Shown here one piece after another: positions 1,470 to 54,063 of a DNA stretch of 64,000 nucleotides; the first letter of the stretch is position 1; each line of letters starts with the position of its first letter. The stretch lies in NCBI RefSeq assembly GCF_041886205.1, contig NZ_CP169029.1, one strand, 5' to 3'. The notes beneath the pieces were generated by a model, which had not been told where the DNA came from, made no database searches, and saw only the letters and a program-made list of their open reading frames with translations. A program made the translations under genes and the position numbers. This stretch comes from Escherichia coli. GTDB taxonomy: Bacteria > Pseudomonadota > Gammaproteobacteria > Enterobacterales > Enterobacteriaceae.

Positions 1470-2969
1470 ATGTCCGAAACATTTTTGCAAATGAAGCATA
1501 TCACCAAACGCTTTCCTGGAGTGTTGGCGCTTAATGACGTGCAATTTTCCCTACGCCGGGGCGAGGTTCATGCATTATTAGGTGAAAATGGTGCAGGAAA
1601 ATCTACCTTAATGAAAATTTTGTCGGGGGTTTATCAACCTGATGAAGGCGAAATAATTTTTGAAGATAAACCAGTCTCATTTTCTGATCCGTTAAGTGCG
1701 CAAAACGTAGGTATTACTATTATTCACCAGGAATTTAATTTATTTCCCGAGCTTACAGTAGAAGAAAATATTTTTATCGGCAGGGAGTTTTGTAAAAAAA
1801 ATCGCTGGCGTCTGGATGAAAAACAGCAACGCCAGGCGACGATTGAAATTTTGCAAAAATTAAATTTGGCGATCAAACCAGATACTCTGGTTGCCGACCT
1901 TACGGTAGCTCAGCAGCAGATGGTAGAAATTGCCAAGGCCATTTCAGTTAACGCCAGGATTCTCATTATGGATGAACCTACTGCGGCGTTAACAGAAACT
2001 GAAATTGAAAGCTTATTTCGCGTCACCCGGTTATTGAAAGAGCAGGGGACCGGCATTGTTTATATCTCCCACCGTCTGGAAGAGTTGGCGCTAATTGCCG
2101 ACCGTGCGACTGTAATGCGTGATGGTCAGTACATCAGCACGGTGGATTATGAGTGCGTAAAAATCAGCGATCTGATTGCCATGATGGTTGGTCGCGATTT
2201 AGGGAATATCTATCCCCGCCGCGAGGCCTTGCAGCAGCGGATTCCGGTTCTGGAGGTAAACGGACTGACGCGCAAAGGCGTCCTGAACGATATTAATTTT
2301 ACGCTTTATCGTGGCGAGATCCTCGGCTTTGCCGGACTGATGGGCGCGGGGCGTACTGAACTTGCGCGTGCGATTTTTGGTGCGGATTCTATTGACAGCG
2401 GAACGCTAAAATTAAATGGTAAGGAAACCGTTATTAAAGATATTTCGGATGCTATTCAGCAGGGAATTAGTTACCTGACGGAAGACCGCAAAAAAGAAGG
2501 GCTGGCGCTGAATTTATCTGTTGAACGAAATATTATGTTAGGAAACTACCCTGAATATTCCGATCGTTTTGGGAATGTCGATTCGCGTCGTTGCCAACAA
2601 ACCAGTGAGGAACAGGTAAAAGCGTTAAGGATTAAAACGCCAAATCTTGAACAGGCGGCATTAAATCTAAGTGGAGGAAACCAGCAGAAAATTATAATTG
2701 CACGTTGGGTGTGTAAAGATACTGATATTTTAATCTTCGATGAACCCACTCGCGGCATTGATGTTGGCGCCAAACTGGAAATCTATGAGTTAATGAATCG
2801 CCTGGTGGCAAAAGGGAAATCAATCATCATGATCTCCTCTGAATTGCCTGAGGTGTTAGGAATGTGCGACCGTATTTTAGTGATGCGCAGTGGTCGAATT
2901 ACCGGCGAACTTAGCGCAAAAGAAGCGACACAAGAAAAAATTATGCAATACGCGACGTTAGAGGATTAA
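1470..2969 (+). CDS. Sugar ABC transporter ATP-binding protein, two fused ABC domains (RbsA/XylG-like)
   Basis: ORF with Walker A GENGAGKST and second ABC domain; ATG 1470 with GAGG RBS (ORF track starts at TTG 1455). Confidence 0.85.
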   Translation: MSETFLQMKHITKRFPGVLALNDVQFSLRRGEVHALLGENGAGKSTLMKILSGVYQPDEGEIIFEDKPVSFSDPLSAQNVGITIIHQEFNLFPELTVEENIFIGREFCKKNRWRLDEKQQRQATIEILQKLNLAIKPDTLVADLTVAQQQMVEIAKAISVNARILIMDEPTAALTETEIESLFRVTRLLKEQGTGIVYISHRLEELALIADRATVMRDGQYISTVDYECVKISDLIAMMVGRDLGNIYPRREALQQRIPVLEVNGLTRKGVLNDINFTLYRGEILGFAGLMGAGRTELARAIFGADSIDSGTLKLNGKETVIKDISDAIQQGISYLTEDRKKEGLALNLSVERNIMLGNYPEYSDRFGNVDSRRCQQTSEEQVKALRIKTPNLEQAALNLSGGNQQKIIIARWVCKDTDILIFDEPTRGIDVGAKLEIYELMNRLVAKGKSIIMISSELPEVLGMCDRILVMRSGRITGELSAKEATQEKIMQYATLED

Positions 2970-2972
2970 ATT

Positions 2973-3956
2973 ATGACTATCTCTGTAACCTCTCCAGACA
3001 GTAATAATAAGAAAATAAAGATAAATAAAGAACTTTTGATGCGTCTTGCGCCTCTTTTTAGCTTAATTATATTAGTGCTGTTTTTTAGTTTCAGCTCTCC
3101 CTTTTTCTTTAATACCGAAAATATCATGACGATTGCTCTGCAAACGTCGGTTATCGGCATTATGGCCATTGGGGTAACTTTCGTCATTATTACCGCGGGC
3201 ATCGATCTTTCATTGGGCTCCGTGGTGGCTTTTTCTGGTGTCGCCGTGGGGATTTGCGCCACACTGGGCCTGCCGCTGCCAGTGTGTATTATTGCCGGTG
3301 TTTTAGCCGGTGGAATGTGCGGCTATGTGAATGGTTTGTTGGTCACTAAAATGACCATTCCACCATTTATCGCTACCTTGGGCCTGATGATGTCCGTCAG
3401 AGGTATCAATATGGTGATGACCGACGGGCGCGCCATCTATTTTGCCGATTACCCGATGTTCAAAACGCTCGCTCAGGGACGCTTATTTGATGTGCTGCCT
3501 TATCCTGTTTTCTACCTTGTCATTGTAGCGCTTGTCGGCGCTTACATCCTGAAGAAAACCGTCATTGGTCGCTATGTCTATGCCGTAGGCAGTAATGAAG
3601 TTGCTGCTCATCTTTCTGGTATTAAAGTTCAGCGCGTGAAAATTTTCGTCTATGCCTTCTGTGGATTATTAACGGGGATTGCAGGTGTCATTCTGGCATC
3701 TCGTCTCAACTCCGGACAACCGACGGTAGGTGTGGGTTATGAACTGGAAGCTATTGCCGCGGTAGTGATTGGCGGAACCAGCTTAATGGGCGGTATTGGC
3801 ACTATTGGCGGCACAATCATTGGCGCTTTCATTATGAGTGTACTGAAAAATGGCCTCAATTTAATGGGCGTCTCCCAGTTCTGGCAAATGGTCGCGATGG
3901 GCGTCGTTGTGGTCGCTGCCGTTTACCTCGATACATTACGCAAAAAGATTCGTTGA
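2973..3956 (+). CDS. Sugar ABC transporter permease (RbsC-like)
   Basis: 327-aa hydrophobic multi-TM protein; ATG 4 nt after ATPase stop; GAGGA RBS. Confidence 0.85.
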   Translation: MTISVTSPDSNNKKIKINKELLMRLAPLFSLIILVLFFSFSSPFFFNTENIMTIALQTSVIGIMAIGVTFVIITAGIDLSLGSVVAFSGVAVGICATLGLPLPVCIIAGVLAGGMCGYVNGLLVTKMTIPPFIATLGLMMSVRGINMVMTDGRAIYFADYPMFKTLAQGRLFDVLPYPVFYLVIVALVGAYILKKTVIGRYVYAVGSNEVAAHLSGIKVQRVKIFVYAFCGLLTGIAGVILASRLNSGQPTVGVGYELEAIAAVVIGGTSLMGGIGTIGGTIIGAFIMSVLKNGLNLMGVSQFWQMVAMGVVVVAAVYLDTLRKKIR

Positions 3957-4029
3957 CTTAGGCTCCCTGTTTTATCGGGAAACAACTGCCCTGACGTTAA
4001 GGGTGATTCACTCAGAACGGAGTACAACA

Positions 4030-4980
4030 ATGAAAACCAGGCATTTTATCTATGCGTTATCTCTGCTGGCTTGCGTAAGTTCCAGCGCACTGGCGAAGGA
4101 TTTAAATCTTCCGGTTGTTAGTAAAGGTTTCCAACATGAATTCTGGCAAACCGTAAAAATGGGGACTGAAGCTGCGGCTAAAGAGTTGGGGGATAAAACC
4201 AGCTATGTTGGCCCGGCTGATGAAACGCAAATAGCCGAGCAAATTCAGTTAGTCGAAAATGCGATGGCGCAGAAACCGAATGGCTTGCTTCTGGCAGCCC
4301 TCGACGCGAATGCGCTCGCCCCACTGGTAGAAACGGCAAATTCACGCGGTATCAAAGTGGTGACCTTTGATTCAGGCATCAATTCAGACATTCCGGTGAG
4401 TTTTGTCGCCACCAATAACCGTAAAGCAGGTGCTCAGGCAGCTGATGCCTTAGCCTCGCAGGTAAATAATAAAGGGAAAGTTGGGATTATCGCGCACGTT
4501 GCAGGAACATCTTCCGCTATTGAACGCTCGGAAGGCTTCATGGAGCGTATGAAAGAAAAATATCCTGACATTAAAGTCTTACCCGTTCAGTACAGCGATG
4601 GTGACCCGCAAAAAGCGATGGATAAAACTATCGATATGATTCAGGCCAATCCCGATCTTGCTGGGATCTATGGCACCAATGAAGGTTCAACGCTCGGGGT
4701 GGCGAATGCCATTGATAGCCAGAATCTGAAAGGTAAGGTGAAGGTCATTGGTTTTGATAGTACGGAAGCGATTATTAACTTCCTGAAGAACGGCGTCATT
4801 CAGGGCTTTGTTGTTCAGGATGCATACCAGATTGGCTATCAAGGGATCAAAACGTTGAACGCGGCCCTTTCGGGGCAAGCCGTTGAAAAAGAGATCGATA
4901 TTCCCGTGAAATTTGTTAATGCCGAGAATATTAACACGCCAGAAATCGACAAACTCCTGCACCCATTCGGTAAGAAATAA
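4030..4980 (+). CDS. Periplasmic sugar-binding protein of ABC transporter (RbsB-like)
   Basis: Signal peptide MKTRHFIYALSLLACVSSSALA then PBP-like domain; ATG 4030 with GGAG RBS (ORF track start 3907 is an upstream extension). Confidence 0.8.
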   Translation: MKTRHFIYALSLLACVSSSALAKDLNLPVVSKGFQHEFWQTVKMGTEAAAKELGDKTSYVGPADETQIAEQIQLVENAMAQKPNGLLLAALDANALAPLVETANSRGIKVVTFDSGINSDIPVSFVATNNRKAGAQAADALASQVNNKGKVGIIAHVAGTSSAIERSEGFMERMKEKYPDIKVLPVQYSDGDPQKAMDKTIDMIQANPDLAGIYGTNEGSTLGVANAIDSQNLKGKVKVIGFDSTEAIINFLKNGVIQGFVVQDAYQIGYQGIKTLNAALSGQAVEKEIDIPVKFVNAENINTPEIDKLLHPFGKK

Positions 4981-5032
4981 AAAATTGGGGATGAATTTTC
5001 ATCCCCGTTATCTCCAGCGTCAGGGAGGCTTT

Positions 5033-6613
5033 ATGCACAACGGTTATTTTCTCGGTGTCGATGTCGGATCGGCCAGTGTCAGGGCAGGCGTTTACAGTGC
5101 CAGTGGCCACAGGCTGGCATTCGCTACTGCGCCCGTCTCCCAGTTTCGCCCTGGCGGCGAGCGTGTCGAACAGTCTTCGGCAGAGATCTGGCAACAAGTT
5201 TGTAAAACGGTGAAAGAGGCGACAGCTTTGGCAGGCATCCCCATTTCCGCAATTCGCTCACTGGGTTTTGACGCTACCTGCTCGCTGGTTGTTCTTGATG
5301 AACAAGGCCAGGGTTTAGCGGTTTCGTCCGGTGGATCTGCGAATCACGACATTATTATGTGGATGGATCATCGTGCAACTGTCGAGACGGCGCAGATTAA
5401 CGCAATGAAGGATCCCGCATTGCGCTACGTTGGCGGCGAAGTGAGCGTCGAGATGGAGTTACCAAAGTTACGTTGGTTGAAGACGCATCTACCGCAAACC
5501 TGGCAGGCCGCTCATCGCTTTTTCGATCTGGCGGATTTTCTGGTCTGGAAAGCAACAGGGCGAGACGTCGCGGGATTATGCACGCTAACGTGTAAATGGA
5601 ATTATCTAGCTCATGAGCAACGCTTTAGCCATAGCTTACTGGAATCGATAGACCTGACCGATATGCTTGAAAGAATTCCTGCCAACATTCTTCCGCCTGG
5701 CGCTGCCGTGGGAACGTTAACCGCCACAGCTGCTGAAGAGTTAGGATTAACGACTAATGTTATCGTGGCCAGTGGCTTGATTGATGCCCATGCCGGTGGC
5801 GTGGCGCTGGCTGGCGCTCACCCATCAGGAACGCTGGCATTGATAAGCGGAACGTCGAACTGCCATATGCTGTGTAGTGAAAAAGAGATATTCACCCCTG
5901 GCGTCTGGGGGCCATACTGGTCGGCCATGTTGCCAAATTACTGGCTAACCGAAGGCGGGCAAAGCGCCGCAGGGGCGCTGGTGGAGTGGACGCTTCAGGA
6001 GTCAGGGGCAAGCGCAAATCTTTTTCACAAGGCGCAGCAACGCGGATGTCATCCGATTCAACTGATTAATGAATGGGTAGCAGCCCTTGAAGCTAACGAG
6101 TCAGAACCCACACGAAATTTACATGTGCTTGCCGATCATCACGGCAACCGTTCGCCACGAGCGCGGCCCGATGCCAGAGGCAGTGTTTATGGCTTAACAC
6201 TGGAGCGTGGTGAAAATCAGCTCGCGCGACTTTATCTTGCGACTTTACAGGCAATAGCCTTTGGCACCAGACATATTATTGAAACTCTGCGGGAAAATGG
6301 GCATACCATTACCCGATTAACATTATGTGGTGGTGCAACGCACAACCCTTTATGGCTACGCGAATATGCAGACGTGACAGGTTGCGATATCCACCTGATG
6401 CAAGAAGAAGATGCCGTTACGTTGGGCGCAGCAATTAGCGGCGCTGTTGCCAGCGGAGCATGGGGGGATTTTACATCTGCGTGTAAAGCAATGGTTGAAG
6501 CCGGAGAGATTATTCAGGTAAATCCACAACGCCGTGAATTTTTAGAGCGTAAATACCGGGTTTACCTGACGCTTTGGGAGCAACAACAGGCGGTTAACCA
6601 ACTGATGCAATAA
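5033..6613 (+). CDS. FGGY-family carbohydrate kinase (pentulose/ribulokinase-like)
   Basis: N-terminal YFLGVDVGSASVRAGV glycine-rich kinase motif and C-terminal LCGGATHNPLW motif typical of FGGY kinases; ATG 5033 with GGGAGG RBS. Confidence 0.8.
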   Translation: MHNGYFLGVDVGSASVRAGVYSASGHRLAFATAPVSQFRPGGERVEQSSAEIWQQVCKTVKEATALAGIPISAIRSLGFDATCSLVVLDEQGQGLAVSSGGSANHDIIMWMDHRATVETAQINAMKDPALRYVGGEVSVEMELPKLRWLKTHLPQTWQAAHRFFDLADFLVWKATGRDVAGLCTLTCKWNYLAHEQRFSHSLLESIDLTDMLERIPANILPPGAAVGTLTATAAEELGLTTNVIVASGLIDAHAGGVALAGAHPSGTLALISGTSNCHMLCSEKEIFTPGVWGPYWSAMLPNYWLTEGGQSAAGALVEWTLQESGASANLFHKAQQRGCHPIQLINEWVAALEANESEPTRNLHVLADHHGNRSPRARPDARGSVYGLTLERGENQLARLYLATLQAIAFGTRHIIETLRENGHTITRLTLCGGATHNPLWLREYADVTGCDIHLMQEEDAVTLGAAISGAVASGAWGDFTSACKAMVEAGEIIQVNPQRREFLERKYRVYLTLWEQQQAVNQLMQ

Positions 6614-6677
6614 GACAAAAGTTGAAAATACTTTTATGATTGTGATTTGACGTCTGGATGTTAACTGGGAAATACCT

Positions 6678-7676
6678 ATGGCTAAAACAGTAGAGCAGAT
6701 AGCCAGCGACCTGAATTTATCGGTTACGACCGTGCGACTGGTGCTAAATGGAAAAGCGGAACAATATCGAATCAGCGTCAAAACCCAAACGCGTATCAAT
6801 GAATATGTTGAACGCTATGGTTATATCATTAATCATTCCGCTCGCAGCCTTAAGCTTAACAAAACTGATACATTAGGGTTGATTGTTCCCAACATATCCA
6901 ACGTCTTTTTTGCTACGCTGGCAGAAAAACTCGAACAACGCTGTCGACGTTCCGGATATCAACTTACAATCAGTTGCACTTATGATGATGTTGACTATGA
7001 AAATAAATTGACGAAAGCATTTATCGCACGAAATGTAGATGGTCTTTTTATTGTTCCTTCGACGCTGGAAAATCAGCAGCATCATTTACGCAAAATTCGT
7101 AAGCCCATGGTTTTACTCGATCGTGATTTTAAATATACCGATAACGCATTGGTAGAGAGTAATAATATTTCTGGCGGAGAAAAGCTGACGCAAAATATTC
7201 TTGAGGCCGGGCAGACTCCAGTATGGTTTTTGCTGGGAGATGCCGGTTTGCCGAGTATCAGCGATCGTCTGACAGGTTATTTGAATGCGTTGGCAAAAAA
7301 AGGGATTACCCATCGCGATTGGGTGCGGGAAGGTCCGGTAAATACTCCGGAAGGCGGCTATGTCATTATGGAAAAACTCATTGAAGAGCAGGGATGTCCG
7401 CAGGCATTTATCGCCTCGTCTTTGCCTGTGCTTGAAGGCGCTGTCCGCGCGATTCGCGACCGTCTTGGCGCTGTACCGCCAGAAATCAATATTGGCACTT
7501 TCGATGAACATCCTATGCTGGGATTTCTCGCCAACAATGTCTGGTCAATGCAGCAGGATGAAAATGCCTGGGCAGAAAAAGCGTTCGAAATGATGTTAAG
7601 CGCGATCGAAGAAAGACCAGTCAAAAAAACAGTTAAAGTAGAAATGAAATTAATTAAGCGCATAAGAAAAAAATAA
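6678..7676 (+). CDS. LacI-family transcriptional regulator
   Basis: N-terminal HTH (TVEQIASDLNLSVTTVRLVLNG) plus periplasmic-binding-like sugar domain; Lys-rich C-terminal tail. Confidence 0.85.
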   Translation: MAKTVEQIASDLNLSVTTVRLVLNGKAEQYRISVKTQTRINEYVERYGYIINHSARSLKLNKTDTLGLIVPNISNVFFATLAEKLEQRCRRSGYQLTISCTYDDVDYENKLTKAFIARNVDGLFIVPSTLENQQHHLRKIRKPMVLLDRDFKYTDNALVESNNISGGEKLTQNILEAGQTPVWFLLGDAGLPSISDRLTGYLNALAKKGITHRDWVREGPVNTPEGGYVIMEKLIEEQGCPQAFIASSLPVLEGAVRAIRDRLGAVPPEINIGTFDEHPMLGFLANNVWSMQQDENAWAEKAFEMMLSAIEERPVKKTVKVEMKLIKRIRKK

Positions 7677-16266: not shown

Positions 16267-16812
16267 GTGGACGATTTGACCGCACAAGCCCTGAAAGATT
16301 TTACTGCACGCTACTGCGATGCGTGGCATGAAGAGCATAAAAGCTGGCCGTTAAGTGAGGAACTGTACGGTGTTCCTTCACCGTGCATTATTTCAACTAC
16401 CGAAGATGCCGTATACTGGCAACCCCAGCCGTTTACCGGGGAACAAAATGTAAACGCGGTTGAACGCGCTTTTGATATTGTGATACAACCCACAATTCAT
16501 ACCTTTTATACGACTCAGTTTGCCGGGGATATGCACGCGCAGTTTGGCGATATCAAACTGACATTGCTGCAAACCTGGAGTGAAGACGACTTCCGTCGGG
16601 TGCAGGAAAATCTGATTGGTCATCTGGTGACTCAGAAAAGGCTAAAACTGCCGCCCACGCTATTTATCGCGACGCTGGAAGAAGAGTTAGAGGTCATCTC
16701 GGTGTGTAATCTCTCCGGTGAAGTGTGCAAAGAGACGCTGGGAACACGTAAACGGACGCATTTAGCCTCAAATCTTGCGGAATTCCTTAATCAACTTAAG
16801 CCTCTTCTGTAA
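16267..16812 (+). CDS. syd: SecY-interacting protein Syd
   Basis: 181-aa ORF in conserved position upstream of csrB. Confidence 0.9.
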
Positions 16813-16831
16813 TCCAAATACCCCATCTGGT

Positions 16832-16849
16832 TGTGAGAGATCTCTTACA
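16832..16849. promoter_or_regulatory. UvrY (BarA/UvrY) binding palindrome upstream of csrB
   Basis: 18-bp inverted repeat TGTGAGAGATCTCTTACA about 175 bp upstream of the CsrB 5' end. Confidence 0.7.
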
Positions 16850-17022
16850 GACTCTGTAGGAGATCGCCAGGAAATAAGCGAATACTTAAAAAGATAAGAA
16901 TCGTTATTTTCATTTAAAATCAAAATGTTGATTGTTAATTCTTAACTTTCATATGAAATTTTCCTTAAGGCATTGTCTGTAAGCGCCTTGTAAGACTTCG
17001 CGAAAAAGACGATTCTATCTTC

Positions 17023-17388
17023 GTCGACAGGGAGTCAGACAACGAAGTGAACATCAGGATGATGACACTTCTGCAGGACACACCAGGATGGTGTTTCAGG
17101 GAAAGGCTTCTGGATGAAGCGAAGAGGATGACGCAGGACGCGTTAAAGGACACCTCCAGGATGGAGAATGAGAACCGGTCAGGATGATTCGGTGGGTCAG
17201 GAAGGCCAGGGACACTTCAGGATGAAGTATCACATCGGGGTGGTGTGAGCAGGAAGCAATAGTTCAGGATGAACGATTGGCCGCAAGGCCAGAGGAAAAG
17301 TTGTCAAGGATGAGCAGGGAGCAACAAAAGTAGCTGGAATGCTGCGAAACGAACCGGGAGCACTGTGAATACAGTGCTCCCTTTTTTT
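17023..17388 (+). ncRNA. csrB: CsrB small RNA (CsrA-sequestering)
   Basis: About 365 nt with many repeated CAGGAUG / AGGA motifs (CsrA binding sites), ending in a GC hairpin (17355-17380) plus T7 run. Confidence 0.93.
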
Positions 17389-17433
17389 ATTCCTGCTATC
17401 CTTCGCGGCAGTTTTTCTTATTGAGGTTGCTTT

Positions 17434-17763
17434 ATGACCACTCATGACCGCGTTCGTCTCCAGTTGCAGACGCTTGAAGCGTTACTGCGTGAACATCAGC
17501 ACTGGCGAAACGATGAACCCCAGCCGCATCAATTTAATAGTACCCAACCGTTCTTTATGGACACCATGGAACCACTGGAGTGGTTGCAGTGGGTGCTGAT
17601 CCCGCGAATGCACAATTTGTTAAATAACAACCAGCCGTTACCGGGTGCTTTTGCCGTTGCACCCTATTATGAAATGGCGCTGGCGACGGACCATCCGCAA
17701 CGCGCGCTTATTCTGGCTGAGCTGGAAAAACTGGATGCTCTTTTTGCGGATGATGCGAGCTAA
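17434..17763 (+). CDS. yqcC: DUF446-family protein YqcC
   Basis: 109-aa ORF, conserved position before truC. Confidence 0.88.
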   Translation: MTTHDRVRLQLQTLEALLREHQHWRNDEPQPHQFNSTQPFFMDTMEPLEWLQWVLIPRMHNLLNNNQPLPGAFAVAPYYEMALATDHPQRALILAELEKLDALFADDAS

Positions 17764-23734: not shown

Positions 23735-26491
23735 TTACCCGAGAATTTTGCTGGCTTCGCGCGCGACATTATCCATCTCGTCCAACAGTTCCAGCAGCTC
23801 CGGCTCCAAATCTTCTTCTTTAGTACCGCTACGTAGCTGTTGTTCGATCAGTTGGCAGAGATTCTTCATACGCGGCACACCGCTATAGCCGCAACTGCCA
23901 TGCAGTTTATGAATCAAATCAACCAGGCCTTCTGGGTTTTCTCCAACCAGCTGTTCCTCAACTTTGTTGCGAACTTCAGGCAGGAAATCGAGTAACATTT
24001 GCAGCATATCGCGCGCTAAATCGGTTTTTCCTGCTGCCTGGCGTAGTGCCAGTTGCCAGTCGAGGGTCGCATTCGGGTTCACCACAATTTCGTTGACTTC
24101 GGGCGTCACGACGCGAGACGAAATACCGCTGCCAGGCTTGTAGCGCAACAACAAATTATGCAATCGCTCTTCTTCAATCGGTTTCGCCAGATAATCGCTC
24201 ATCCCTGCGCCAAGCAGCTTCTCTTTTTGCCCGGCCATTGCATGCGCCGTTACCGCGATAACCGGCGTTTGTTGCTGATGGGGGAGCTGGTGGATGAGCT
24301 CGCAGGCCCGAATGCCATCCATGTCAGGCATTTGAATATCCATTAAGATCAAATCGAACGGCATCTGTTTCGCCCGTTCAACCGCCTGATGCCCGCTATC
24401 GCAAAGTTCCACATGTTGCACCATATCTTCCAGCAATGCGCCGATAAGTTTCAGGTTAGCGGGGTTGTCATCAACTGCCATGACTGTCATTGCCAGCTTG
24501 CTTTCATCGGTTACAGGCAAAAGCGTGTTTTGTTTGTGATGACAAAATTCCGTCAGGGCAGGCAACAGGCGTGTAGGTGTTAATGGTTTCAGCAGACACG
24601 CGCCGATACCATCTTGCTTGAGTTTTTCAGCATTGACTTGTGCATGGCAAGGAAGTGCCAGCATCAGGAAATCGGTCATCGATACCGCTTTCGCTAATCG
24701 CTCATGTTGCATTGTTAGCGGCTCGCGGAAGGTCACCGCGATGCCTAACAACATCATGTCGTAATGCGCGGGAGGCAGCGCGGAGAACGTTGGGCTATAA
24801 ACCACTTCCAGCGGCGTTTCACTTAAAATATCCAGCGTGCATTGCGCTGCTGCGGAGTTTGGTTCGACATAGGCCAGGCGCTTACCTGCGAGGCACTGGG
24901 TGGATGGCCCTTCGATAATAATGTTCGGGTTCAGATCGAGATTAATGTGGAACCAGAAAGTTGAACCGCGATTCGGCTGGCTATGGAACGAAATATCGCC
25001 GCCCATTTCATTAACCAGTTTTTGTGTAATCACCAGCCCCAGCCCGGTGCCACCATGACGGCGGGAAATACTGGCATCAGCCTGTCGGAAGGCCTGGAAT
25101 AAGCGCGATTGATCGCGTTCAGGAATACCAATGCCGGTATCCCGAATCTGCACTTCAATCTGCACTTTGGTATTACTCAGCGCACGTTTTTCTACCAGAA
25201 TATCAATGTTGCCATTCTCGGTGAATTTAATTGCATTCCCCACCAGGTTAGTGATGATTTGCTGTAATCGCAGCGGGTCGCCGATCACGTTATCAGGCAC
25301 GTCGCTTTTAATATTGAGCGTCAGTTCCAACCCTTTATCGTGAGAAGAATGTGCCAGCAGAGTAACGACTTCATCCAGCGTGCTGCGTAGTGGGAATGGA
25401 ATACTTTCCAGAATCAGCTTACCTGCTTCCAGTTTCGAGAAGTCGAGAACATCATTAATAATTGCCAGCAAATTATTTGCCGAACGTTCAATCGTATTCA
25501 GGTGATCGCGCTGCGTTGGTGTTAATTCTGTTTTCAGCGTCAGGCGGGTAAAGCCAATAACACCATTCAGTGGTGTACGCAGCTCGTGTGACATATTTGC
25601 CAGAAACTCGGATTTAATACGCGCCGCTTCCTGGGCGCGCTTTTTCGCCAGATCCAACTCAACGTTCTGAATTTCCATCTGCTCCAGCGTTTCACGCAGA
25701 TCGGACGTCGCCTGGTCGATATTGTGCTGCATCTCTTCGTGATAAGCAGCCAGCGACATTGCCATCGAGTTGATACCGTTTTTCAGCATATCCAGCTCGC
25801 CGAGCATAAATCCTTCCACCCGGCTGTCGAGTTGCCCGCGACGGATGCGGTCGACGGTATTCACCATGTTGCGAATCGGACCGGTTACATCGCGCATTAA
25901 GCGCCAGCCAAAAATAAGCGCAATACCGATACAAAACAGCATCATCACGCTGGAAATAAAGATCTCTTTATATTGCTGCAAGCGAACCGATTTAAGATCC
26001 AGCTCAAGCGCAATATATCCCAACATATTTTGACTATTTTTGGCATCGCTACTGGGCGATTCGTCGGGGGAGTAACTCTCAGAAATAATCGGCGTGCGGA
26101 GGATCATAATATCGCCGTCACGAGTGACAGTGAGCTGGCGAGGAAAAGGCACGTTGCTGCCGAGCTGCATCGATGAGGGATCAAGATGAAAATTGGAGGT
26201 GACAAAGAGTCGGTTATTTTCATCATAAACCGAAATCGCGCGAACAATATCGGAATGGCGACGATGCAGTACGCTTATTAACTGACCGATAGATTCGCGA
26301 TTTTGCAGGCTCATGCCATATTCAGTAGAAACTGCAAGCGGCTCAATAATGCTGGCACCGGCATCTTCCAGTTGACGCTGCAAGTCGTTATAGCGATGCA
26401 CGACGAAAAAGATACTCAGCAATAAACCAATAAGGACGGTCGGTGCCAGGATCAGAATCATCATGCGTGCGCGCAGGCTGTAGTTGGTCAT
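23735..26491 (-). CDS. barA: Hybrid sensor histidine kinase BarA
   Basis: 918 aa with TM, HAMP, HisKA/HATPase, receiver and HPt regions. Confidence 0.95.
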
Positions 26492-46077: not shown

Positions 46078-46350
46078 GAGTTCCCCGCGCCAGCGGGGAT
46101 AAACCGTTCGCTGGCAATCCACTCAGGAATTTCGGGAAGAGTTCCCCGCGCCAGCGGGGATAAACCGGGCAGTACCGACATGGACGGTCACCACGAGTTG
46201 AGTTCCCCGCGCCAGCGGGGATAAACCGTGTATAGCGCCAAAATTGACGAAAGACATGTTGAGTTCCCCGCGCCAGCGGGGATAAACCGGTTGTAGCTGA
46301 CAATGTAAATCATGGATTTACGAGTTCCCCGTGCCAGCGGGGATAACCAT
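46078..46350 (+). CRISPR. Type I-E CRISPR array: 5 repeats (last degenerate), 4 spacers of 32 nt
   Basis: 29-bp repeat GAGTTCCCCGCGCCAGCGGGGATAAACCG at 46078, 46139, 46200, 46261; degenerate GAGTTCCCCGTGCCAGCGGGGATAACCAT at 46322. Confidence 0.95.
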
Positions 46351-51981: not shown

Positions 51982-52245
51982 ATATTGCCGGATAAATTAA
52001 ACGCCTCTGTCAGAAATGATGGGGGCGTTTTTATTTTGCGAGCAGCATTCCTGATTTTAAACGTGAAAATAGCAGAGGGAATCAGCAGGCATAGAATGGC
52101 GTCGGGTGCTTGAGGCTGTCTGGCGTTGAGCATTCGCGAGGTTCCAGATGGACAAAAGCCCCAGGCGATATTTCTATCAACCTGAGGCCAGCGTTCGAAC
52201 CTAAGCAATTCGGATGTTAGTCTCTTCTTTGCAGGGAGGCAAGAC

Positions 52246-52398
52246 ATGCTGACAAAATATGCCCTTGTGGCAATCATCGTACTGTGTTGTACAGTACTGG
52301 GATTCACGCTGATGGTAGGCGACTCGTTGTGTGAGTTGAGTATCAGAGAACGTGGTATGGAGTTTAAGGCAGTTCTCGCTTACGAATCGAAGAAGTAG
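52246..52398 (+). CDS. Hok/Gef-family type I toxin (hokX-like locus)
   Basis: 50-aa [53 protein letters not shown]: N-terminal TM helix plus conserved C-terminal LCE..IR....E.A..AYES pattern of Hok proteins. Confidence 0.7.
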
Positions 52399-52635
52399 CC
52401 ACCACGCGGGGGGTAAAATCCCGCGTACTGAATTGTGATGGTTTGGTCTCCTGCACCCTTTTTAATTTATATTGTTTATGTGAATATTATGCCTGTGTTT
52501 ATTATTTATATGTTTTATAGATGAAAACCATTGAATTATTCACAATGTAAATATTTTAATGAACGATATATATCACAGATAATTTTTAATATATGCGTAA
52601 ATATCCTTTAAGTTTTACGAAAGGATAAAAACATT

Positions 52636-54063
52636 GTGACTTTCTTTGATTTCTGGGGAAAAAACCGACGCGGCGAGAAAGAGGGCGGCGACGACTATCA
52701 TCTACTTTGCTGGCATTCGCTGGATGTAGCCGCGATGGGCTATTTAATGGTTAAAAGCAATTGCTTCGGGCTGGCTGACTATTTTCGTCAACTAGGTTTC
52801 GATGATACGGAGCAGGCAGCACAATTTTTCGCCTGGCTATTGTGCTGGCACGATATTGGAAAATTTGCCCGCTCTTTTCAGCAACTTTATCTGCATCCAC
52901 AACTCAAGGTTCCGGAAGGCGCAAGAAAAAATAACGAAAAGATCTCTCATTCAACGCTGGGTTACTGGTTGTGGAATCATTATTTAATTGAATGTGACGA
53001 GTTGCTTCCTTCCTCTTCACTCTCTCCCCGCAAACTTAAACGGGTAATAGCGATGTGGATGCCCATGAGCACGGGGCATCATGGTCGCCCACCTGACCGT
53101 ATTGATGAACTGGATAATTTTCTGCCTGAAGACAAAGTTGCCGCGCGAGATTTTCTCCTTGAAATCAAGTCACTGTTCCCGCTCATAGAGATCCCCACAT
53201 TCTGGGATGATGACGAGGACGTTGAACTTATAAAACAACTTTCCTGGTATATCTCTGCAACCGTCGTACTTGCAGACTGGACAGGATCGTCAACGAGATT
53301 TTTTCCACGCGTCGCACACCCAATGGATATTAAAGATTACTGGCAGAAGGCTTTAGTGCAGGCTCAAAACGCCTTAACCGTCTTTCCTCCAAAAGCAGAA
53401 ACCGCACCTTTCACCGGAATTAATACACTGTTTCCTTTTATTGAGAATCCGACACCGTTACAGCAAAAGGTGCTGGAACTGGATATCAGCCGGCCCGGGC
53501 CACAGTTATTTATTCTGGAGGATGTAACCGGCGCAGGTAAAACAGAAGCGGCGCTTATCCTGGCGCACAGGTTGATAGCTGCGGGGAAAGCTCAGGGGCT
53601 GTTTTTTGGTCTGCCAACAATGGCAACGGCCAATGCCATGTACGATCGGCTGGTCAAAACCTGGCTTGCTTTCTATTCGCCAGAATCCCGCCCCAGCCTG
53701 GTGCTGGCACACAGTGCCCGCACATTAATGGACCGCTTTAATGACTCACTCTGGTCCGGTGATTTAGTCGGGTCAGAAGAACCGGATGAACAAACGTTCA
53801 GTCAGGGATGTGCAGCCTGGTTTGCCGACAGTAACAAGAAGGCTTTACTGGCTGAAATTGGCGTCGGCACGCTGGATCAGGCGATGATGGCAGTGATGCC
53901 GTTTAAACATAATAATCTGCGGCTTCTGGGGTTGAGTAACAAAATCCTGCTGGCTGATGAGATCCACGCCTGTGACGCTTACATGTCGTGCATTCTTGAA
54001 GGGCTGATCGAGCGGCAGGCGCGTGGCGGAAACAGCGTTATTTTGCTTTCTGCTACGTTATCT
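52636..54063 (+). pseudogene. cas3: 5' fragment of type I-E cas3 (HD nuclease domain and helicase motifs I-III), truncated at a CRISPR repeat
   Basis: HD motif (CWHDIGKF), Walker A (TGAGKTEA), DExH (LLADEIHACD), SAT (LLSATLS); reading frame then runs directly into the repeat at 54064; about 476 codons, roughly half of a full cas3. Confidence 0.8.

Follow-up and report, generated by a model that had tools for sequence, protein, structure and literature searches.

The window (the whole stretch of Escherichia coli DNA that we analysed, 64,000 nt) almost certainly carries csrB at positions 17023-17391 on the plus strand. The gene encodes an untranslated RNA of 369 nt, of the kind that sequesters CsrA, and its upstream region would place it under the control of phosphorylated UvrY (UvrY-P) and IHF. 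The gene is already known; it is intact, it sits at its usual place, and it differs from the K-12 sequence by a single base. We mapped its ends from the K-12 gene (b4408), and we found no evidence in the sequence against this reading.

An earlier note on this DNA, made from the letters, had named the RNA CsrB and suggested a scan with the Rfam model as a check. That scan was strongly positive. We searched the whole window against Rfam 15, and RF00018 (CsrB) matched at 17032-17391 on the plus strand with 383.4 bits, as compared with a gathering score of 71 (E = 1.5e-111). The match covers model positions 1-356 of 356, so it is not truncated. Just two matches in the whole window were above the gathering score, CsrB and sok. 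Within the clan to which CsrB belongs (CL00106), the best match at 17032-17391 was CsrB and not CsrC.

Comparison with other E. coli genomes gives the same answer. The curated record of K-12 MG1655 has csrB (b4408) as a 369-nt ncRNA placed between yqcC and syd, and the window sequence is identical to it at 368 of 369 nt. Across the entire 621-bp spacer between syd and yqcC, a single base differs from MG1655: position 17362 is A in the window and G in K-12. This base lies in the stem of the csrB terminator, so the one G·U pair of the K-12 stem becomes an A-U pair, and the stem in the window is fully Watson-Crick. In strain wlxctx60, for which a complete wild isolate genome is available, the spacer is 100% identical; the chromosome of this strain is collinear with the window, with about 9 mismatches across the 64 kb compared. 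More broadly, when we compared the spacer containing csrB to 5426 complete E. coli genomes, 5425 of them gave a match. The one exception had no match at all, and one of the matches was on a plasmid.

The neighbouring genes also agree with the earlier note, which had placed csrB between syd and yqcC. The upstream gene (16267-16812, plus strand) has the Pfam domain Syd and the downstream gene (17434-17763, plus strand) has DUF446, and both names agree with the RefSeq annotation of a near-identical strain. csrB is on the same strand as both of its flanking genes. We found no terminator-like site between the syd stop codon and the csrB control region (16813-16831), and no promoter-like site in the 42 nt between the 3' end of csrB and the yqcC start codon (17392-17433). 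It is therefore conceivable that transcription of syd reads through into csrB, or that yqcC is expressed from a promoter that lies inside or upstream of csrB.

The control region begins with the binding site for UvrY-P, TGTGAGAGATCTCTTACA, at 16832-16849 on the plus strand. Zere and colleagues (2015, PLoS One; PMC4682653) used ChIP-exo and DNase I footprinting to show that UvrY-P binds exactly this 18-mer, which is centred at -183/-182 relative to the start of csrB. The site in the window matches the published footprint exactly, in both sequence and position: it is identical in K-12, it starts 20 bp past the stop codon of syd (16810-16812), and with the start of csrB placed at 17023, its centre is again at -183/-182. 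The same study found that deleting barA lowers UvrY binding in vivo by about 35-fold (PMC4682653). The site had previously been described, from the letters, as an 18-bp palindrome upstream of csrB. It is indeed present and intact, but the palindrome is imperfect: one of its 9 pairs, G4/T15, is a mismatch, and the other 8 are complementary. Of 5425 E. coli genomes, 4364 carry the 61-mer around the box without any change. There is no second copy of TGTGAGAGATCTCTTACA in the 64-kb window, even if up to 3 mismatches are allowed (0.03 chance matches expected). We considered whether the 18-mer might reveal other UvrY targets in the window and rejected this, as the copy at 16832-16849 is the sole one even with 3 mismatches.

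Outside of E. coli, the box is found next to CsrB-type genes. We searched GTDB r220, with a single genome for each species, for exact copies of TGTGAGAGATCTCTTACA and found them in at least 120 loci from the Enterobacterales, the Vibrionaceae, Shewanella, and other gamma-proteobacteria; our figures for the box in other species describe 121 occurrences among the matches listed. Among these, 115 of 121 occurrences are within 700 nt of a GGA-dense stretch (at least 12 GGA per 350 nt, on one side), and in 30 of the 115 GGA-dense cases the orientation of the box is opposite to that of the RNA. When we sampled loci and compared them to Rfam, CsrB adjoined the box in 7 of 8 GGA-positive loci and in 0 of 4 negative loci. 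In six Enterobacterales genera, 174.5-191.5 nt separate the box centre from the start of the Rfam match, as compared with 191.5 nt in the window. Taken together, the GGA-dense neighbours, the Rfam matches, and the spacing indicate that the box is conserved alongside CsrB-type genes and comes close to being diagnostic of them. In outline, this association has already been described, as the GacA/UvrY box. Among the matches listed, 6 of the 121 boxes lack a GGA-dense neighbour (such as loci L037, L080, L082, and L091) and have no Rfam CsrB match. These six may be chance occurrences, other targets of UvrY/GacA, or loci that end at the edge of a contig.

The same regulatory design is seen in several related systems. 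In E. coli itself, CsrC (RF00084, also in clan CL00106) resembles CsrB in that it sequesters CsrA via GGA motifs and is controlled by UvrY-P at an upstream inverted repeat (PMC4682653). Unlike CsrB, CsrC is shorter, has fewer sites, has a less symmetric repeat (TGTGAGACATTGCCGATA), does not need IHF, and is encoded elsewhere on the chromosome (PMC4682653). CsrB/C/D of Vibrio also combine a GGA-rich decoy RNA with a response regulator of the GacA/UvrY family and an upstream palindrome. Among the matches listed, a single Vibrio genome has as many as three copies of the exact 18-mer, Shewanella has it too (loci L035, L036, and L056), and each copy adjoins a GGA-dense stretch. The RNAs themselves are divergent: the copy from Vibrio breoganii scores 87 bits on RF00018, and the Shewanella copy that we sampled (L035) falls below the gathering score. 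RsmX/Y/Z of Pseudomonas are decoy RNAs of the same design, with an upstream activating box for GacA/VarA, TGTAAGN6CTTACA.

Returning to the E. coli locus, an extra UvrY-like half-site, TGTAGGAGA, lies at 16855-16863 on the plus strand, 5 bp downstream of the UvrY box. Zere and colleagues had described this extra conserved sequence at the same distance from the repeat (PMC4682653). Although we selected loci by the 18-mer alone, the pattern TGT..G..AT within the half-site is invariant across 17 genera of Enterobacterales. Also, TGT[AG]AG occurs at most 10 nt past the UvrY box in 52 of 108 loci, among the matches listed.

Full expression of csrB requires IHF, and Zere and colleagues placed a putative IHF site between the upstream UvrY site and a second UvrY crosslink near -35 (PMC4682653). 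We identified a putative IHF site at 16918-16933 (-105 to -90), where both strands fit the consensus WATCAANNNNTTR, with the sequence AATCAAAATGTTGATT. Our scan for this consensus gave 9 matches in the window, as compared with 2.9 expected, and two of the 9 are at 16918-16933. Furthermore, the ATCAA...TT core of the site is conserved in the alignment of the 17 genera. This is probably the very site that Zere and colleagues marked. As the box, TGTAGGAGA, and the IHF consensus are all found at their published places, the published cis elements are present and unaltered.

The promoter of csrB is less obvious. A consensus promoter scan reported no sigma-70-like sites in 16700-17500. We instead aligned the region from the box to the start of csrB in the 17 Enterobacterales genera and found two conserved blocks before the start, CTTGTAAGAC (with TTG) and GATTCTAT. 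These suggest a weak sigma-70 promoter at 16988-17016 on the plus strand, with TTGTAA as the -35 (16988-16993), a 17-bp spacer, and GATTCT as the -10 (17011-17016). This candidate matches 7 of the 12 consensus positions, which is below the threshold of the scanner, so the -35 and -10 were assigned from conservation alone. A weak sigma-70 promoter would fit with the dependence of csrB on an activator.

Two inverted repeats are located around this promoter. One has arms of 15 nt that are 90 nt apart and 87% complementary (16897-16911 and 17002-17016); the IHF site lies between these arms, and the right-hand one overlaps the -10 region. The other is a small repeat, GACGA-N8-TCGTC, at 17008-17025, which covers -15 to +3 of csrB. 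In DNA this rich in AT, both may have arisen by chance.

The conserved sequence near -35 may have another role. The second UvrY crosslink near -35 in the ChIP-exo data was left unexplained, as the inverted repeat is not preserved there (PMC4682653). We noticed two TGTAAG hexamers in this region, at 16978-16983 and 16989-16994, each of which is identical to half of the consensus UvrY site. The spacing between them is 11 bp, or one helical turn, and the second one overlaps the proposed -35, TTGTAA. Zere and colleagues make no mention of these hexamers (PMC4682653). In 108 oriented loci from other species (among the matches listed), TGTAAG was seen 43 times at 120-150 nt past the box, as compared with 8 times in 200 nt on its far side, which served as a control. 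Furthermore, CTTGTAAGAC is conserved in 10 of the 17 genera, and the sequence surrounding it is not. We tentatively suggest, as an idea that is more probably wrong than right, that the crosslink near -35 reflects direct contact of UvrY with the two hexamers, which a bend by IHF at about -100 would bring to it. A plainer alternative is that TGTAAG could just be a conserved -35-like hexamer, as TTGTAA resembles TTGACA.

If the elements in the window work as they do in K-12, then BarA would sense short-chain carboxylates and phosphorylate UvrY, and UvrY-P would bind the inverted repeat at 16832-16849, 183 bp upstream, on which transcription of csrB would depend. A bend induced by IHF at about -100 would help to bring UvrY towards the csrB promoter. 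Transcription would start at the weak sigma-70 promoter and would stop at the hairpin and T-run at 17356-17388, and the GGA sites of the resulting RNA would sequester dimers of CsrA away from their mRNA targets. Of these steps, the binding of UvrY-P, the dependence on IHF, and the sequestration of CsrA were shown in published experiments with K-12, whose sequence is nearly identical; what we computed on the window concerns the RNA (its identity, motifs, and terminator), the UvrY box and its spacing, the neighbouring genes, and the integrity of barA. Binding and sequestration of CsrA are established for K-12 CsrB, which is one nucleotide of the terminator stem away from the RNA in the window (PMC4682653), and we carry over from those experiments the expectation that the RNA in the window would also sequester CsrA. 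Turnover of CsrB depends on CsrD and RNase E (cited in PMC4682653). Purified UvrY-P and IHF did not give transcription of csrB in a defined in vitro system (PMC4682653). Because these two proteins are insufficient in vitro, at least one further factor probably takes part in the activation of csrB.

The sensor kinase of this pathway is also in the window, although outside of the csrB locus itself. barA (23735-26491, minus strand) is an open reading frame of 918 amino acids and encodes the tripartite kinase that phosphorylates UvrY. The protein has all of the expected Pfam domains (sCache_4, HAMP, HisKA, HATPase_c, Response_reg, and Hpt). The phosphorelay runs through H302, D718, and H861 to D54 (PMC4682653), and the first three of these residues are present in BarA from the window. 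The gene is 6.3 kb from csrB and is annotated as barA in a near-identical strain, so the earlier note was right that barA lies in the same window. The note had also stated that the components of the BarA-UvrY-CsrB pathway appear intact here. This holds for csrB and for barA, but it was an overreach for UvrY, as uvrY is outside of the window: when we searched the 64 kb with K-12 UvrY using tblastn, the only match was to the receiver domain of BarA, at 29% identity. Thus, just two-thirds of the claim about the pathway can be checked from the sequence of the window. From the map of K-12, we presume that csrA, csrD, and ihfA/B are outside of the window as well.

This raises the issue of whether csrB could be present but silent in this strain, due to a defect in a partner that is encoded outside of the window (uvrY, csrA, or ihf). 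The location of uvrY would allow this, and the circuit is naturally disrupted in at least two other strains. E. coli MARGA_3 has an IS3-family element inside csrB (equivalent to 17114-17116 of the window), with a 3-bp overlap at the junction, and E. coli A1.S1.18 has a damaged UvrY box, TGTGAGATATTCTTACA, that is one base shorter (equivalent to 16832-16849). In the window, however, all of the cis elements and barA are intact, and the window is nearly identical to the complete genome of a wild isolate. We do not know of loss of uvrY being common. Overall, we consider a silent csrB to be very unlikely.

The RNA itself has the motifs expected of CsrB. We compared csrB (17023-17391) to 2000 dinucleotide shuffles. 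It contains 22 GGA motifs, as compared with a mean of 14.9 in the shuffles (10 of 2000 reached 22), and 14 AGGA motifs, as compared with a mean of 4.9 (none of 2000 reached 14). The longer motifs stand out even more: CAGGATG occurs 6 times (shuffle mean 0.11) and CAGGA[TAC]G occurs 9 times (shuffle mean 0.30), and in both cases none of the 2000 shuffles reached the observed count. The count of AGGATG was not reached by any of the 2000 shuffles either. The remainder of the window would predict 4.6 GGA for this length rather than 22, and across the whole window outside of the csrB region, the highest number of GGA in any 369-nt stretch was 13 on the plus strand and 15 on the minus strand. These counts, and the distance of 366 nt from the 5' end (17023) to the end of the T-run (17388), or 369 nt to 17391 by the K-12 annotation, bear out the earlier description of a non-coding region of about 365 nt that is full of CAGGATG and AGGA.

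The GGA motifs are also in the right structural context. In the predicted minimum-energy fold, 18 of the 22 motifs are unpaired (at least 2 of 3 nt), and by the Rfam structure line for RF00018, they fall in loops. This fold has a predicted energy of -121.1 kcal/mol, which corresponds to z = -4.66 relative to shuffled versions. Mostly-unpaired GGA motifs are consistent with what would be expected for CsrA-binding loops. There is next to no chance that the region instead encodes a small protein, such as the 46-amino-acid open reading frame with a GTG start at 17047-17187 or the 71-amino-acid frame at 17230-17445 on the minus strand: frames of 22-71 amino acids do exist mechanically on both strands, but those overlapping csrB show nothing suggestive of a gene, they either have GTG or TTG as the start codon or cross the terminator in antisense, the repeat unit is a 7-nt CAGGATG in hairpin loops whose irregular spacing gives no constant codon phase, other genera appear (from the divergence of the homologues) to keep the GGA hairpins and not the reading frames, and the structure-scoring covariance model of Rfam matches over its full length. 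We rejected the coding reading of these frames because the full-length model of a structured RNA fits and because the spacing of the repeats is irregular.

The gene ends in an intrinsic terminator at 17356-17388 on the plus strand, and the earlier note had correctly described this as strong. It consists of GGGAGCACTGT-GAAT-ACAGTGCTCCC followed by TTTTTTT, or in other words a perfect stem of 11 bp (7 of the pairs are G-C), a loop of 4 nt, and seven T. This is also the terminal hairpin of the Rfam model for CsrB. To see how widespread the A at 17362 is, we used megablast with a 61-nt query around this position, and among 5426 complete E. coli genomes, at least 2348 have the identical 61-mer with the A allele; this number is a minimum and should not be read as an allele frequency, as only 2379 genomes matched at all. 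The low total is probably due to low-complexity masking of the T-run, which would remove the seed in genomes with a mismatch.

Other loci in the window were noticed along the way. The sok match to Rfam (52104-52261, 108 bits) and an open reading frame of 50 amino acids in the Hok/Gef family (52246-52398) form a hok/sok-type toxin-antitoxin locus at 52104-52398, between cysH and a cas3 remnant. By the annotation of a near-identical strain, the type I-E CRISPR-Cas system looks decayed (52593-54063 and 46078-46350): the sole cas gene annotated from hok to iap is a frameshifted and truncated cas3 pseudogene, and there is a short orphan CRISPR array near queE, beside a pseudogene of an FGGY kinase. 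The same annotation has five genes at about 1470-7676, between fucI (which is cut by the start of the window) and fucA. Three of them encode a sugar ABC transporter, and the other two encode an FGGY-family kinase and a LacI-family regulator. At this position, K-12 presumably has fucP.

In summary, the identification of csrB is a correct annotation and not a discovery. It nevertheless adds to some genome records. In the RefSeq/PGAP record of a near-identical strain, there is no feature in the 621-bp spacer (positions 11014-11634 of L001, which correspond to 16813-17433 of the window), whereas the K-12 record has an ncRNA there. Because PGAP leaves this spacer empty, a scan that recognizes csrB provides information that is missing from such records. 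CsrB is the main antagonist of CsrA, which is a global regulator of carbon metabolism, biofilm formation, motility, and virulence. Because rare isolates carry an insertion sequence in csrB or a damaged box, "intact" has some meaning as a description of a strain, and in this window, csrB, the UvrY box, and barA are all undamaged.
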